4,645 nucleotides of DNA from a virus (lineage: Duplodnaviria > Heunggongvirae > Uroviricota > Caudoviricetes), in the IMG/VR virus record IMGVR_UViG_2703718812_000024; one strand, 5' to 3'. How positions within the stretch are numbered: position 1 is the stretch's first letter; every line of letters begins with the position of its first letter. The translations under genes and the position numbers were made by a program. This document shows positions 1 to 3,900 of this stretch, piece after piece. The notes under the pieces were generated by a model. The model worked only from the letters and a program-made list of their open reading frames with translations. It had not been told where the DNA came from and did no database searches.

Positions 1-15
1 CATCCCGGGCCACCA
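1..15 (+). other. Possible 3' terminus of a tRNA gene or integration-site core (window begins ...CCCGGGCCACCA)
   Basis: The first 15 nt end in a GC-rich acceptor-stem-like run followed by CCA, immediately upstream of a P4-type integrase gene, which is the usual tRNA-attL-int layout. Too little sequence is present to name the tRNA; I could not match it to a specific E. coli tRNA from memory. Confidence 0.25.
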
Positions 16-22
16 AATCGAT

Positions 23-51: not shown

Positions 52-134
52 AACAAAGAAAACCCGCACCAGACAAGGAACGCAGTTTTTTTATTGTTCA
101 GTTTGGGTCAGTTTGATAGCGTATAAGCAAGATT

Positions 135-215: not shown

Positions 216-1481
216 GTGACCAAAAAAACTAAGTCCTTATCACCAGCAGCGATAAAAAGCCTCCAGCGAAAAGCCAGCAACGAAAAAAAGGACCTTTTCA
301 TCACTGACGGCGAAGGGCTGGAACTGGTGATTAAGCACAAAAGCGCCTCTTGCTTGTGGCGTTACCGCTACTACAAGCCACACACAAAAAAACGGGCCAT
401 GTTAAGCATTGGCGCATATCCAGAAATAAGCATTGCGGGCGCGCGAAAGATAAAAGACGAATACAGGGCGCTTCTTTCTGGTGGCATTGACCCAAAAGAG
501 CACAGAGAGAAACAGCGCCTTAGTGAAGTGATGAAGAGAGAGAACACCTTCAGGCATGTAGCTACGCTTTGGTTTGAACTTAAAAAAGGGCAAGGACTCG
601 CAGAAGGCACACTACGCGATACATGGCGCTCGCTGGAGCGTAATGTATTCCCGTCAGTCGGCAACAGACCAGTAGCAGACCTGATCGCAAGCAACTTCAT
701 CGAAGCATTAAAACCATTAGCCGCCCAGGGGAAATTAGATACCGTCAGAAGAACGGCGCAGCGAATCAATGAGGTCATGTATTACGCCGTTAATACCGGA
801 ATGATTACCGCGAATGCGGCATCACAGATAAACAAGGCATTTAACGCGCCGAGCGCTAAGAACATGCCAGCAATACGCCCTGAAGAACTCCCCGATTTTA
901 TGCAGAAGCTGGCAACGGCACGAGTGGAACGACAAACGCGGCTGGTTATTGAGTGGCAGTTACTGACAATTTGCCGACCAGGTGAAGCAGCTGGCGCGCG
1001 CTGGTGTGAGATTGATTTTGAGGCGAAGGAATGGCGCATACCAGAGCACAGACTTAAACAACGCAGGGAACACGTAATACCACTCTCGAAGCAGGCGTTA
1101 GCCATTCTGGATGTCATGAAGCCAATAAGCGGGCATCGTGAGTTTATATTTCCACACAACAGCGACCCGCAGCGCCCTATGTGCACACAAACAGCAAACG
1201 CAGCAATAAAACGCATGGGTTTTGGTCGGCGGCTGGTTGCTCATGGCTTGCGCTCAATAGCAAGTACCGCACTTAACGAGCAAGGTTTTGACTCTGACGT
1301 AATCGAGGCGGCATTGTCACACATAGACAAAAACGAGGTTCGCCGCGCGTACAACCGCTCAACCTATCTCGAGCAGCGACGCCCGTTAATGGCGTGGTGG
1401 GGGAATTTTGTAGAGGCAGCCGCAAGCGGGAGCGTAAGCGCCACAGGTGGCTATCGTGGGTTAAAAATGGTTAACGGTTAA
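216..1481 (+). CDS. int: Tyrosine-type site-specific integrase, P4 / CP4-57 IntA-like
   Basis: 421-aa ORF with GTG start 9 nt after GGAG (203-206). The N-terminal region (LFITDGEGLELVIK...WRYRY...LSIGAYPEISIAGARKIKDEY) resembles the DUF4102-type arm-binding domain of P4-family integrases. The C-terminus carries the tyrosine recombinase catalytic pattern (R...HGLRS...RAYNRSTY). It sits next to a putative tRNA 3' end. Confidence 0.93.
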   Translation: MTKKTKSLSPAAIKSLQRKASNEKKDLFITDGEGLELVIKHKSASCLWRYRYYKPHTKKRAMLSIGAYPEISIAGARKIKDEYRALLSGGIDPKEHREKQRLSEVMKRENTFRHVATLWFELKKGQGLAEGTLRDTWRSLERNVFPSVGNRPVADLIASNFIEALKPLAAQGKLDTVRRTAQRINEVMYYAVNTGMITANAASQINKAFNAPSAKNMPAIRPEELPDFMQKLATARVERQTRLVIEWQLLTICRPGEAAGARWCEIDFEAKEWRIPEHRLKQRREHVIPLSKQALAILDVMKPISGHREFIFPHNSDPQRPMCTQTANAAIKRMGFGRRLVAHGLRSIASTALNEQGFDSDVIEAALSHIDKNEVRRAYNRSTYLEQRRPLMAWWGNFVEAAASGSVSATGGYRGLKMVNG

Positions 1482-1485
1482 GGGC

Positions 1486-2382
1486 ATGACAAACAAAAAG
1501 ATAAACCTTCCTGAAAGGGATTATTACCCGTTAGACAAGGCAGCCAGAAGGCTTGGGTGTGACGTTGATGATTTGATTCACTTCATCGCTACAGGGAAGA
1601 TGTGTTTTTGGTACCGTCATCACATAGACGAGGTTTTGACATTACATAATTATAAAAACGCATTTAATAGTGTATCAGCATCAGATTATTATTATGAAAA
1701 TGATGAAGGCGTATTCATCAGAGCAACCGACATATTAAAATTACTTGAATCCTCATCTTTTGGTGAAAAAATAATAACCGATGAAGAACAGCTAACGGAA
1801 AAGATATTTTTTAATTGCTGTGGCGGTTATTCTGAAACAGATATTTTTATATACAACTATCATGGATATAAACAAAGAAAAATCAGAACACAGTTACCAC
1901 ATAAAATCAGGGTTGTGGCTTCAGGACTTTTACAGGTATTTAATACAAGCATTGATATAGAGAATCTATCAAATGACGTCACAGATTGTTATGTGCGACG
2001 CATCGTTATAGCAGATAAAGGAAAAGAACCAAAGATAACAATAAATTTATATGGCAAAACAATAAATATTAGTGACATTTTCATCTCAAAAGAAGAGATA
2101 AAAATAGTAATGAACGGCGGCAGACAACCAGGAGATATGGTAAAGGATTTTTCAGATAAACACGCCTTGTCGCATTCGCAGAGTAAGAAAACAACCAATC
2201 TTCAGGCCAGAGTTATCAAAAGACTAATCACCGCCATAGCCGGAGAAGAAGAGGCAGCAAACCCAAGAAGAGCGCTTGAGAACGGTCACAGCAAGTTAAG
2301 CCGCGCACTAACCAAAGCAGGGGTTGAAATTGGCGCAACCCCTTCATCTGTTGGTAAGTGGCTTGCAGACGTTGACGACTGA
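1486..2382 (+). CDS. Hypothetical protein (298 aa), AT-rich cargo gene between int and alpA; function unknown
   Basis: Long ORF starting 4 nt after the int stop (weak SD AAGGG) and followed 21 nt downstream by a strong rho-independent terminator. The central part (about 1620-2160) is markedly AT-rich (roughly 30% GC by eye) while both ends match the roughly 50% GC of the neighbours. I recognise no family motif. Confidence 0.7.
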   Translation: MTNKKINLPERDYYPLDKAARRLGCDVDDLIHFIATGKMCFWYRHHIDEVLTLHNYKNAFNSVSASDYYYENDEGVFIRATDILKLLESSSFGEKIITDEEQLTEKIFFNCCGGYSETDIFIYNYHGYKQRKIRTQLPHKIRVVASGLLQVFNTSIDIENLSNDVTDCYVRRIVIADKGKEPKITINLYGKTINISDIFISKEEIKIVMNGGRQPGDMVKDFSDKHALSHSQSKKTTNLQARVIKRLITAIAGEEEAANPRRALENGHSKLSRALTKAGVEIGATPSSVGKWLADVDD

Positions 2383-2403: not shown

Positions 2404-2427
2404 GCCCGTAATATTACGGGCTTTTTT
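2404..2427 (+). terminator. Rho-independent terminator closing the int / cargo-gene transcription unit
   Basis: GCCCGTA (2404-2410) and TACGGGC (2415-2421) form a 7-bp GC-rich stem around an ATAT loop, followed by TTTTTT (2422-2427). Unidirectional for the + strand. Confidence 0.75.
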
Positions 2428-2432
2428 CGTAA

Positions 2433-2490
2433 TATTGCGCAATACCGACATTAACCATGTTTGCATATCCTTAAGCAAGTTTAGGCAAGT
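2433..2490. promoter_or_regulatory. Putative alpA control region: 12-bp perfect palindrome TATTGCGCAATA (2433-2444) and tandem 10-bp repeats TTAAGCAAGT / TTAGGCAAGT (2471-2490)
   Basis: Palindrome and tandem repeat seen directly. They lie between the upstream terminator and the alpA SD (AAGGA 2506-2510). I could not identify a clean sigma70 -35/-10 pair here. Confidence 0.3.
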
Positions 2491-2519
2491 TATCGCCTGA
2501 AACAAAAGGAAAGCAAAGC

Positions 2520-2723
2520 ATGAACATCACAGAAAAGAAAATCCTTACAAAACGAGAAGTCGCAAATCTTCTTCGCCTTAGTACAACAAGCATTGACACA
2601 ATGGTTAAGGCTGGTGAGTTTATTCCTGGCTTTAAGCGTGGATTGCGTCGCGTTGGCTGGTTTGAGGATGAGGTGAAATCATGGCTTGAGAAGAAAGTAG
2701 AGGAGCGTTATCAGCAGGAATAA
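2520..2723 (+). CDS. alpA: AlpA-family phage regulatory protein (small HTH DNA-binding regulator, Xis/Vis-like)
   Basis: 67-aa ORF with SD AAGGA 9 nt upstream. The sequence LTKREVANLLRLSTTSIDTMVKAGEFIPGFKRGLRRVGWFEDEVKSWL fits the AlpA pattern (helix-turn-helix followed by a conserved G-R-VGW-EV-W segment). Its position downstream of int is typical for P4-like elements. Confidence 0.85.
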   Translation: MNITEKKILTKREVANLLRLSTTSIDTMVKAGEFIPGFKRGLRRVGWFEDEVKSWLEKKVEERYQQE

Positions 2724-3005: not shown

Positions 3006-3066
3006 TCCCGCGCACCTTATAAAACGGGTGTCGGGATTGGAACCCCGCTGGAGATAAAGGCGATAC

Positions 3067-3089
3067 AGACGCCGAACGCGTCTTTTTTT
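3067..3089 (+). terminator. Hairpin plus T7 run (terminator or attenuator-like) in the module A leader
   Basis: AGACGC (3067-3072) and GCGTCT (3078-3083) form a 6-bp stem around a CGAAC loop, followed by seven T (3083-3089). It lies about 62 nt after the candidate -10, so a short RNA of about 78 nt (roughly 3012-3089) is possible. Confidence 0.55.
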
Positions 3090-3155
3090 GTATCGGCGCA
3101 CACGCACACCTTATCAATGGTGGGCTGTATGGGGCTGACTTCGGTCAGGCTGGTT

Positions 3156-3165
3156 TCCTTTATCG
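3156..3165 (+). promoter_or_regulatory. Anti-Shine-Dalgarno element of module A (TCCTTTATCG), perfectly complementary to CGATAAAGGA at 3235-3244
   Basis: 10-nt perfect complement to the sequence overlapping the SD of the Icd-like gene. It is also complementary over 8 nt to an upstream SD-mimic GATAAAGG at 3053-3060. The orthologous element in module B covaries (see 3634-3643). Confidence 0.45.
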
Positions 3166-3254
3166 CCAGTAGTTCCAACTCCGTGCAGTCCACCGCCAGC
3201 GAGATTGGAACCTCCAGCGGTGGGTATATCCCAACGATAAAGGAGGCTGCCATC

Positions 3255-3443
3255 ATGGCTACTACCCCTGCCCTCGTACATTCTCAGACTGCCTTTATCT
3301 GGCGTTTTATCACCTTCGGCACGTCAGAACGTCAAATTATCCACGTAACCGCCTGGACGGAACGCGAAGCGCGTAACCGTTGCCCGTCCGGTTGTGTCGC
3401 TGTATTCGCTGCCCGTATTCGTCAGGGGGTGAGTCATGCTTAA
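3255..3443 (+). CDS. Icd-like small protein, copy A (62 aa; host cell division inhibitor Icd-like family of P1 / P4-like elements)
   Basis: ATG at 3255 preceded by a strong SD AGGAGG (3241-3246, 8-nt spacer). The protein MATTPALVHSQTAFIWRF...TEREAR...FAARIRQGVSHA shares WRF, TERE(A/T)R and ARIRQGV(S/R)HA motifs with copy B. It is in frame with a longer open frame from 2898; I consider the short form more likely, but this is unresolved. Confidence 0.6.
   Translation: MATTPALVHSQTAFIWRFITFGTSERQIIHVTAWTEREARNRCPSGCVAVFAARIRQGVSHA
3411..3430 (+). repeat. 20-bp exact direct repeat GCCCGTATTCGTCAGGGGGT (partner at 3868-3887) at the 3' ends of the two Icd-like genes
   Basis: Exact 20-mer in both copies, followed in each by GTCATGC, while the rest of the duplicated modules is much more diverged. 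Confidence 0.8.
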
Positions 3444-3480: not shown

Positions 3481-3535
3481 GCCGGAGTCGCCCACATGGC
3501 GACCGGGTTTAGCAGCCTGAATACTACAGCGGACA

Positions 3536-3565
3536 GCCGCTTACATTCCGATATGCGGTTTTTTT
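3536..3565 (+). terminator. Weak hairpin plus T7 run in the module B leader (degenerate counterpart of 3067-3089)
   Basis: GCCGC (3536-3540) pairs with GCGGT (3555-3559), with one G-U pair and a large loop, followed by seven T (3559-3565). The T-run sits at the same offset from the promoter as in module A (108 vs 107 nt). Confidence 0.3.
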
Positions 3566-3633
3566 GCGTCCGTAAACCTACCCATACCCGCATTATGGCG
3601 GGGCGTAACGGGGGAGCCTTTGCGCTCGCTGGT

Positions 3634-3643
3634 TCCTGTAGTG
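3634..3643 (+). promoter_or_regulatory. Anti-Shine-Dalgarno element of module B (TCCTGTAGTG), perfectly complementary to CACTACAGGA at 3711-3720
   Basis: 10-nt perfect complement overlapping the SD (AGGAG 3717-3721) of Icd-like copy B. It is also complementary to an upstream SD-mimic ACTACAG at 3523-3529. The sequence differs from module A, but complementarity is preserved in all three elements. Confidence 0.45.
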
Positions 3644-3729
3644 CCAGTCTGCTAACCCCGTTACGTCTCGCCACCATGTTTAGCAGCGTAGTAGCGAGAC
3701 TCCTTAATTTCACTACAGGAGCCTTTCAC

Positions 3730-3900
3730 ATGGCTGTATCCGCACGCCCTTACTTTGTCTGGCGCTTTATGCAGTGCCATGAAAAACAAACCTCACCCTT
3801 TACCGCCACGGCAGCAACAGAACGCGAAACCCGCGCACAACTTCCGCATACCCATCTGATTTTTGTCGCCCGTATTCGTCAGGGGGTACGTCATGCGTGA
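3730..3900 (+). CDS. Icd-like small protein, copy B (56 aa)
   Basis: ATG at 3730 preceded by AGGAG (3717-3721, 8-nt spacer). The protein MAVSARPYFVWRF...TERETR...FVARIRQGVRHA is paralogous to copy A. Its stop overlaps the start of the next gene (ATGCGTGA). Confidence 0.6.
   Translation: MAVSARPYFVWRFMQCHEKQTSPFTATAATERETRAQLPHTHLIFVARIRQGVRHA

Follow-up and report, generated by a model that had tools for sequence, protein, structure and literature searches.

Two Sets of Putative Protein-Binding Sites in the alpA Control Region of a P4-Like Satellite of Escherichia coli

Introduction

What controls the transcription of alpA, the gene of a small excisionase-type protein, in the satellite element carried by IMG/VR virus record IMGVR_UViG_2703718812_000024 (Caudoviricetes)? 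AlpA controls both its own promoter and the excision of phage-inducible chromosomal islands (PICIs) (PMC6092414, PMC11773190), and the inducer of alpA in Gram-negative satellites, as well as any repressor of this gene, are stated to be unknown (PMC6092414). The 4,645-nucleotide stretch of DNA analyzed here (hereafter "the window") is, as judged from sequence comparison, the left end of a ∼8.4-kb P4-like integrative satellite of Escherichia coli, in which an integrase gene (int) and a 298-codon open reading frame (ORF298) precede alpA. An original prediction, made from the window alone, had pointed to a perfect 12-bp palindrome and to tandem 10-bp repeats upstream of alpA as possible operators of a dimeric regulator (AlpA itself, a helper-phage repressor, or a host factor), and thus as a possible induction switch of the element.

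We find that the region 2404–2519 is indeed a conserved control region of alpA, although the features that are kept across relatives are not exactly those that had been proposed: they are the tandem repeats (R1/R2) and a pair of palindromes (O1/O2, Table 1), of which the 12-bp palindrome is only an accidental by-product. Our preferred reading, which we consider moderately probable, is that AlpA reads R1/R2 together with related sites in the attL arm of the element, and that O1/O2 serve as operator for a dimeric regulator specific to the element, the most likely candidate being the product of ORF298. The idea of an induction switch seems plausible.

Results and Discussion

Tandem Repeats Upstream of alpA Recur in the attL Arm

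The tandem 10-bp repeats TTAAGCAAGT / TTAGGCAAGT are found at 2471–2490, as predicted, and match each other at 9/10 positions (the best register, R1/R2, is given in Table 1). Pairs of tandem 10-mers that differ at no more than one position are found at two places in the window (96–115 and 2471–2490), compared to a mean of 0.116 in shuffled sequences, and the repeats are kept at the same position in 12/12 relatives examined, in the form ACGGCCAGnn / nnGGCCAnnn. They are, however, closer to the gene than had been proposed: rather than ∼30 bp before the Shine–Dalgarno (SD) sequence (AAGGA, 2506–2510), the distance is 14–15 nt to this sequence and 28–29 nt to the ATG, according to the register chosen.

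We used a leave-one-out weight matrix constructed from the repeats upstream of alpA in other loci. In all seven relatives considered (7/7), its best matches outside the alpA upstream region are in the attL arm, a stretch of ∼200 bp that runs from the tRNA end to int, where they read ACGGCCAGTT. The attL arm of the window carries five such sites, S1–S5, which are helically phased and placed between the att core and the arm-type integrase (Int) sites; the alignment of attL gives the order att core, S1/S2, a terminator, S3/S4, S5, and two arm-type sites with an inverted copy. We note in passing that this terminator just inside attL (62–92), which in the 95%-identical variant L003 and in all relatives consists of CCCGCG...CGCGGG and a T-run, has a stem that is damaged in the window.

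The motif also varies in step with AlpA. In the E. coli type, CCAG is changed to CAAG jointly at S1, S2, S5, R1, and R2, and the window AlpA, which is 67–74% identical to all others, goes with CAAG; across the relatives, the motif variant tracks AlpA clades and not Int clades. The Salmonella elements L016 and L021 combine the most divergent integrase (65% identity) with a Salmonella-type AlpA (81–94% identical to other Salmonella-type AlpAs) and CCAG sites. AlpA itself matches Pfam family PF05930 (23.0 bits, with a cut-off of 21) and PHROG 66, annotated as "excisionase and transcriptional regulator" (E = 4.7e-12), and shares 32% identity with P4 Vis across 62 aa, and we therefore assign the element, on the strength of these matches, to the small P4-like/PICI-like satellites.

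Recombination directionality factors (RDFs) typically bind direct repeats spaced by one helical turn, and the factors Apl, Cox, and Vis serve both recombination and regulation (PMC7498355). This is the arrangement seen here, with direct repeats approximately one turn apart, a motif flanked by the att core on one side and by the arm-type Int sites on the other, and a cognate winged-helix RDF encoded in the element itself. Direct repeats with this period are the signature of RDF monomers bound head to tail rather than of a dimeric regulator such as that of the original prediction. In contrast, AlpA, one of the three ligands that had been suggested, is a likely ligand of the repeats, since their motif recurs in the attL arm and its variant follows the AlpA clade. 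R1/R2 thus appear to be sites of a Vis-like RDF, sharing their motif between attL and the alpA promoter, which would make them a new example of a well-known kind.

We considered two other proteins as readers of this motif. The first is the integrase, which might be suspected because the 10-bp motif is concentrated beside the att core and because P4 Int represses its own promoter (PMC7286903). However, a separate, classical arm-type set is present: exact copies of AGGCATAC number four in 28.5 kb, two at each element end with the same 12-bp spacing (the attR pair is at L001 19989 and 20001), such that two direct repeats and one inverted repeat stand beside int and two direct repeats stand in the other arm. 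The layout in P4 is identical, with GGGGGCAYA, and AGGCATAC is therefore the arm-type site of Int, and the 10-bp motif is something else. Taken together with the fact that the ssrA-type Int of L016 and L021, an outgroup at 65%, nevertheless goes with the Salmonella-type motif, this makes Int a very improbable reader of R1/R2 and S1–S5. As a separate observation, the box ahead of alpA (TTTGCATATCC, 2460–2470) resembles the inverted arm-type site before int (TTTGCATATGCC, 177–189), and the two boxes of the Serratia element L007 deviate in parallel (GTATACC and GTATTCC). Int might touch the alpA promoter as well.

The second is a Cox- or Xis-like protein of a helper phage that would transactivate alpA through R1/R2, instead of or besides AlpA. 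P4 has three tandem 10-bp repeats upstream of vis, TTGCTTTAAG, TGGCTTTAAA, and TGACTTTAAG (P4 9176–9205, the "ori type 2 repeats"). These presumably fit the P2 cox-box consensus, P2 Cox being a transactivator at the P4 promoter PLL, and are a parallel to the tandem 10-mers ahead of alpA. Cross-talk between satellite and helper excisionases has been reported (PMC11773190). Here, however, the motif fills the attL arm of the element itself and changes in concert with the AlpA clade of the element, which argues for a cognate reader that is element-encoded, and R1/R2 are located at or past the −10-like box rather than upstream of it. We consequently see little probability in a helper-encoded reader of these repeats.

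Two observations nevertheless speak against the assignment of R1/R2 to AlpA. Within the window alone, the likeness between R1/R2 and the attL sites is modest, with 8 matches where 3.0 are expected. In addition, CP4-57 of E. coli K-12 has tandem AACCAA repeats before the SD sequence of its alpA that do not match its attL motif, and att-like repeats are therefore not a general rule for AlpA genes.

The 12-bp Palindrome and the Phased Palindrome Pair

The palindrome TATTGCGCAATA is present at 2433–2444 and is perfect over its 12 bp, as originally described, but its proposed role as the operator of a dimeric regulator finds no support. The window contains three perfect 12-bp palindromes, compared to a mean of 1.36 in dinucleotide shuffles, 74% of which contain at least one; by this measure, TATTGCGCAATA taken singly lacks significance. 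At the same position, the sister elements L003, L025, and L027 (95% identity) have TATTCCGCAATG, with 4/6 pairs left: both substitutions by which TATTGCGCAATA differs from these relatives lie within the 12-mer and break its symmetry, and the neighboring CGTAATATT repeat is intact, in both copies, in all three. Moreover, the 12-mer overlaps copy 2 of a CGTAATATTRCG pair with a 21-bp phase, and has no counterpart in more distant relatives, where two copies of CGTAATATTRCG, or their class equivalents, are kept. We conclude that TATTGCGCAATA is an accidental overlap with the right part of O2 and not a functional unit, and that it should itself be an operator is hardly credible.

The palindrome had also been described as lying immediately after an upstream terminator. 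The stem of this terminator turns out to be copy 1 of the conserved pair: O1, which is unchanged in L003, L025, and L027, sits in the hairpin GCCCGTAATATTACGGGC (2404–2421), which is followed by T6 (2422–2427) and also scores as an intrinsic terminator. A systematic scan of 13 related loci for two similar 10-bp palindromes 18–23 bp apart gave exactly one match per locus in 9/13, with a spacing of 20–21 bp, always 84–92 nt ahead of the alpA ATG and with no second match elsewhere in 8–28 kb, compared to a shuffle background of 0.014 per 8 kb. The pairs fall into four sequence classes, GTAATATTAC, CGAATATTCG, GGAATATTCC, and GGACATGTCC, between which all four half-sites differ together, and the spacing and position stay constant. 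Self-complementary sites, two copies at integral helical turns, and a position fixed relative to the promoter are what would be expected of an operator pair, and comparison of the relatives supports O1/O2 as a real, conserved operator-like feature.

An alternative is that O1/O2 act at the RNA level only, as a hairpin that terminates or stabilizes the int–ORF298 transcript and that is read by no protein. The terminator score of O1 with its T-run fits such a role, and the two palindrome copies can also pair with each other as a 12–14-bp RNA hairpin (−12 to −21 kcal/mol), which weighs against an operator. A strong hairpin of this O1:O2 type is possible just past the ORF298 stop codon in every relative (z from −2.5 to −8), and L004-type elements have one long inverted repeat instead of two clean palindromes. 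However, the T-run is confined to the E. coli lineage and is missing from L021, L014, L016, and L042, which carry the same or equivalent palindromes, so that termination is not the conserved function and has at most a local, secondary role. For a hairpin, furthermore, it is enough that arm 1 pairs with arm 2, with no need for symmetry within an arm, yet four independent sequence classes have a perfect 10–12-bp palindrome in one arm or more. The spacing of the palindromes stays at 20–21 bp, and the center of O2 keeps a constant distance from the −10-like box (30.5 bp in both the window and L008). A function in RNA alone is thus, in our view, quite improbable, and less likely than the reading of O1/O2 by a protein other than the ORF298 product that is discussed below.

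A search of IMG/VR for the twin-palindrome pattern returned mostly coding repeats and unrelated hairpins, with only L042 being informative. Two further candidates were rejected: a CGAATATTCG pair in L056 stands ahead of an XRE-type repressor and is unrelated, and a third CGTAATAT with an O1-like flank (2877–2884) is probably due to chance, since L003 and L025 carry mutations in it although the surrounding stretch is 98% identical. As for the host factor among the ligands originally suggested, it is unlikely to read these palindromes, since three palindrome classes occur within one species (Salmonella L004, L016, and L021).

The Palindrome Class Follows ORF298

Across the relatives, the palindrome class follows the ORF298 family, and neither AlpA nor the integrase. 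L021 and L023 (Salmonella elements integrated at ssrA) have a Salmonella-type AlpA, GGCCAG-type repeats, and downstream genes entirely unlike those of the window. Their ORF298 is nevertheless the closest relative of that of the window outside E. coli (36–37% identical, with a near-identical N-terminal stretch CDVDDLIHFIA), and their palindromes, CGTAATATTGCA / TGTAATATTACG, 20 bp apart, belong to the same class as those of the window. L016, in contrast, has an integrase that is 97% identical to that of L021, yet a different ORF298 and TGGAATATTCCA; the identity between the two loci is 88–100% through int, drops to 32–48% from exactly the int/ORF298 junction, and recovers at a CTTTCATAT box past the palindromes. 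Finally, the IMG/VR contig L042, which differs in its AlpA subfamily and whose Int shows just 34% identity, has an ORF298-family gene (34% identical over the C-terminal 68 aa, E = 6e-7), the stop codon of which overlaps twin copies of TGTAATATTACA, 20 bp apart, followed by a TTTTGTATATTCC box and alpA. ORF298 and the palindromes thus seem to behave as a regulator–operator cassette whose parts are exchanged together, and this co-inheritance makes ORF298 the best candidate for the ligand of O1/O2, an assignment that we consider tentative and somewhat short of probable.

Several observations weigh against this assignment. ORF298 has no family match in Pfam, PHROGs, or NCBIfam and no detectable DNA-binding domain, its comparison to AlpA by hhalign gives a probability of 0.6%, a Foldseek search of its model against the PDB gives no match at E ≤ 0.001, and its putative recognition helix is acidic. 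The co-inheritance could, moreover, be mere linkage, the gene and the palindromes being adjacent. The AlphaFold2 model of ORF298 has a predicted local distance difference test score (pLDDT) of 65.6, with a β-α-α-β N-terminus (pLDDT about 83) and a helical C-terminus, and neither the N- nor the C-terminal helix has residues that sort cleanly with the palindrome class. No similarity was found to cII of P4.

The main competing reading is that O1/O2 are bound by a protein other than the ORF298 product, either a helper-phage regulator (activator or repressor) or an activator of the Mor or PerC family from the element itself. In P4, dyad and tandem sites located upstream of PLL, the promoter of vis, are the targets of the helper proteins Ogr/δ and Cox, and dimers of the Mor family bind dyads centered near −43.5. 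The element encodes both Mor and PerC proteins, ORF298 lacks a recognizable DNA-binding domain, and in E. coli PICIs, helper phages induce alpA transcription through an inducer that is unknown (PMC6092414). Against this, the window and L021/L023 share a palindrome class in spite of wholly different downstream genes, such that ORF298 is the sole gene of the element that tracks the class, the pairing of ORF298 with the palindromes recurs in L042 at 34% Int identity, and the search of IMG/VR gave no phage with an O1/O2 operator in a comparable context. On balance, we think such a reader unlikely, albeit a more serious contender than an RNA hairpin.

A comparison of the two E. coli variants (window 1486–2382 and L003 9104–10000) adds a further aspect, in that their ORF298 products are ∼54% identical overall, with the first ∼45 and last ∼90 residues nearly identical and the middle replaced, as would be expected for a diversifying sensor domain. 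One could accordingly imagine ORF298 and its twin operator as an exchangeable, immunity-like cassette in which the termini of the protein bind O1/O2 at about −42 and −63 and the hypervariable middle senses a helper-phage protein. We put this forward as speculation, and as doubtful rather than probable in all its parts.

Promoter Geometry and a Proposed Mechanism

The conserved box TGTTTGCATATCCT contains the only positionally conserved candidate for a −10 hexamer, with no recognizable −35; in the distant L042, the box reads TTTTGTATATTCC, with the hexamer TATATT. If the hexamer in TGTTTGCATATCCT is the −10 element, alpA transcription would start near 2476–2478, R1/R2 would span approximately −4 to +16, with the centers of O2 and O1 at about −42/−45 and −63/−66, respectively, all of these positions depending on the assumed start. 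The geometry is weakened by the fact that no σ70 promoter in 2383–2519 passes a consensus scan, the best matrix scores being <8 bits. RNA structure in the alpA leader is likewise not supported (z = −1.06).

Taking these limitations into account, the following mechanism can be proposed, in which we infer the binders, the position of the promoter, and the sign of regulation from the architecture, conservation, co-variation, and homologies presented above. The region 2404–2519 would hold two separate protein-binding modules. At the first, each helical turn would accommodate one AlpA monomer, in head-to-tail order, both at R1/R2 and at the five sites of the attL arm. At attL, AlpA would direct Int-mediated excision, and at R1/R2, which abut the −10-like box and cover the presumed start, it would regulate its own promoter. 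This geometry predicts autorepression, with AlpA limiting its own synthesis as P4 Vis does at PLL and RdfS at PrdfS. At the second module, an element-specific dimeric (tetramerizing) regulator would bind O1/O2 as a dimer of dimers, and would act either as an activator that stands in for the missing −35 or as a repressor that occludes it. In the E. coli lineage, the GC clamp and T-run at O1 may in addition terminate int–ORF298 transcripts. We note, however, that AlpA of EcCICFT073 activates its own promoter and has no effect on Pint (PMC6092414), which is a poor fit with sites that lie over the start, and the sign of regulation may thus be different here.

Comparison with Known Systems

The closest parallel to the R1/R2 system is P4 Vis, which is required for P4 excision and is reportedly (Polo 1996, Cali 2004, Piazzolla 2006) the first gene product of an operon whose promoter Vis regulates. 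The two systems have in common a small AlpA-family winged-helix protein encoded downstream of a P4-type int, immunity RNA of the C4/CI type further downstream, and attP arms with two direct and one inverted arm-type repeats by int and two in the other arm. Vis represses Pint (PMC7286903). Unlike in P4, the site sequence here is RGCAAGTT, its binding being putative; the interval from int to alpA holds a 298-aa gene and twin palindromes, where P4 has the nonhomologous cII and another layout; and the element has no sid, delta, or psu and replicates by a RepA-type helicase.

Apl of phage 186, Cox of P2, and RdfS of ICEMlSymR7A likewise have direct repeats one turn apart with the same motif at att and at a promoter, bind cooperatively head to tail, and as a norm regulate their own or a neighboring promoter; RdfS, for instance, binds attP and its own promoter and represses itself (PMC11963761). 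They differ from the present case in the protein subfamily, and in that there are two promoter sites here compared to seven for Apl.

The PICIs EcCICFT073 and EcCIMP1 show positive AlpA autoregulation and helper-dependent induction by an unknown factor (PMC6092414, PMC11773190). The order int ... alpA ... replication genes and the presence of PerC are shared with the element described here, and AlpA of these islands acts on the promoter of its own gene and is needed for their excision. However, AlpA autoactivates there, and no binding site or repressor is known, whereas here the sites lie over the presumed start. In addition, the present element has P4-type isrK/C4 immunity RNAs and no packaging or capsid-redirection genes in its 8.4 kb, and in EcCIMP1, int and alpA are separated by a small ORF that is unrelated.

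With respect to O1/O2, phased palindromic operators by a regulator gene beside int, both being exchanged together, recall the cI gene and operators of lambdoid phages and Stl of the Staphylococcus aureus pathogenicity islands (SaPIs), and the variable middle of ORF298 is reminiscent of the sensor domains of Stl. Unlike in these cassettes, ORF298 points the same way as int and alpA instead of being divergent, and has no detectable helix–turn–helix (HTH) family. AlpA of Pseudomonas aeruginosa, a Q-like antiterminator, was rejected as a relative, as it shares only its name with the 67-aa excisionase-type winged helix found here: according to its published description, it has eight helices with a C-terminal HTH at about residues 128–142, forms a ring in the RNA exit channel, and binds a single promoter-embedded GGGACG element between −35 and −10.

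The Element and Its Other Features

In the chromosome of E. coli STEC17-183, the window is found with 100% identity as the left half of the ∼8.4-kb element, which is inserted in mdtP; a 95%-identical variant is found at tRNA-Ile, beside mug/rpoD. The gene order in the window is int, ORF298, alpA, two isrK/C4/icd-like immunity modules, an ORF of unassigned function, and DUF4222, and beyond it the same element encodes a RepA-type helicase, SSB, PerC, Mor, and two tRNA genes. The element has not been described before, but its system is ordinary in kind, with nothing categorically new. Of the back-translated scans, that of genome contigs with a single AlpA sequence gave one unrelated Bacteroidota locus, those of viral contigs gave no match, and that of metagenome contigs gave identical copies only.

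Table 1. Features of the Window Discussed in the Text
Feature	Sequence or description	Position	Strand	Basis or remark
S1/S2	AAGACAAGTT / ACGGAAAGTT, tandem sites of the attL arm, 10-bp period, R1/R2 motif	31–50	+
S3/S4	TTGTTCAGTT / TGGGTCAGTT, tandem sites of the attL arm, 10-bp period	94–113	+	other tandem 10-mer of the window
S5	TAAGCAAGAT, site of the attL arm	124–133	+
Arm-type Int sites	AGGCATAC (139–146), AGGCATAC (151–158), inverted ATATGCCT (182–189)	139–189
int	P4-type tyrosine integrase with arm-binding domain	216–1481	+	domain search
ORF298	hypothetical protein, candidate O1/O2 ligand	1486–2382	+	co-inheritance with palindrome class
O1	CGTAATATTACG, perfect palindrome CGTAAT/ATTACG, copy 1	2407–2418		repeat finder, palindrome scan
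O2	CGTAATATTGCG, CGTAAT/ATTGCG, 5/6 pairs, copy 2	2428–2439		21 bp from O1
12-bp palindrome	TATTGCGCAATA	2433–2444		overlaps O2; judged a chance by-product
Conserved box	TGTTTGCATATCCT, −10-like hexamer CATATC (2464–2469) or TATCCT (2466–2471)	2458–2471	+	putative promoter role
R1/R2	TAAGCAAGTT / TAGGCAAGTT, direct repeats, 10-bp period, proposed AlpA sites	2472–2491	+	best register
alpA	67-aa winged-helix protein of the AlpA/excisionase family	2520–2723	+	Pfam, PHROG, identity to P4 Vis

A number of further observations concern the element as a whole. In STEC17-183, mdtP is split by the element, and CATCCCGGG is doubled at both element ends (window 1–20; L001 11625–11640 and 20060–20075). The 95% variant and all relatives are at tRNA-Ile or ssrA, and the mdtP insertion looks like secondary-site integration that inactivates an efflux-pump gene. 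Outside the window, close to where the element ends on the right (L001 19370–19450), a run of short direct repeats, GTGAAAGAAG GTGAAAGAAG GTGATTTTT GTGAAATTAA ... GTGAAATCA GGTGAAATAA, resembles the iterons of a replication origin.

Downstream of alpA, two tandem modules at 3012–3443 and 3487–3900 each consist of isrK, a C4 antisense RNA, and an icd-like ORF, with Rfam scores of 61.5 and 36.6 bits for isrK and 77.6 and 73.5 bits for C4, and both icd-like ORFs end in ARIRQGVxHA; together, they form a duplicated P4-type RNA immunity region. Between alpA and this region, a minus-strand σ70-like match (2932→2904, GTGACA-17-TACAAT, 10/12), which is the joint best of the window with one other site, faces a minus-strand terminator with a T-run (2870→2845), and 2835–2932 is thus a candidate for a leftward small RNA of ∼60 nt, with a weak Rfam match to isrL (E = 0.009).

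Conclusions

The present analysis corrects the annotation of the terminator and of the palindrome upstream of alpA, and provides a concrete map of an alpA control region, comprising two AlpA-type sites common to attL and the promoter, a weak promoter with a −10-like box only, and a phased operator pair that travels with a variable neighboring gene. Should ORF298 not bind O1/O2, the locus would still be a clean example of an excision factor that autoregulates via att-like repeats. If ORF298 does bind them, it would be a candidate sensor or repressor for this element family, and of real interest for satellite induction. Were the full cassette proposed above to prove true, including the sensing of a helper-phage protein, ORF298 would be the missing master switch of AlpA-controlled Gram-negative satellites and a functional counterpart of SaPI Stl, drawn from a protein family without a recognizable DNA-binding domain.

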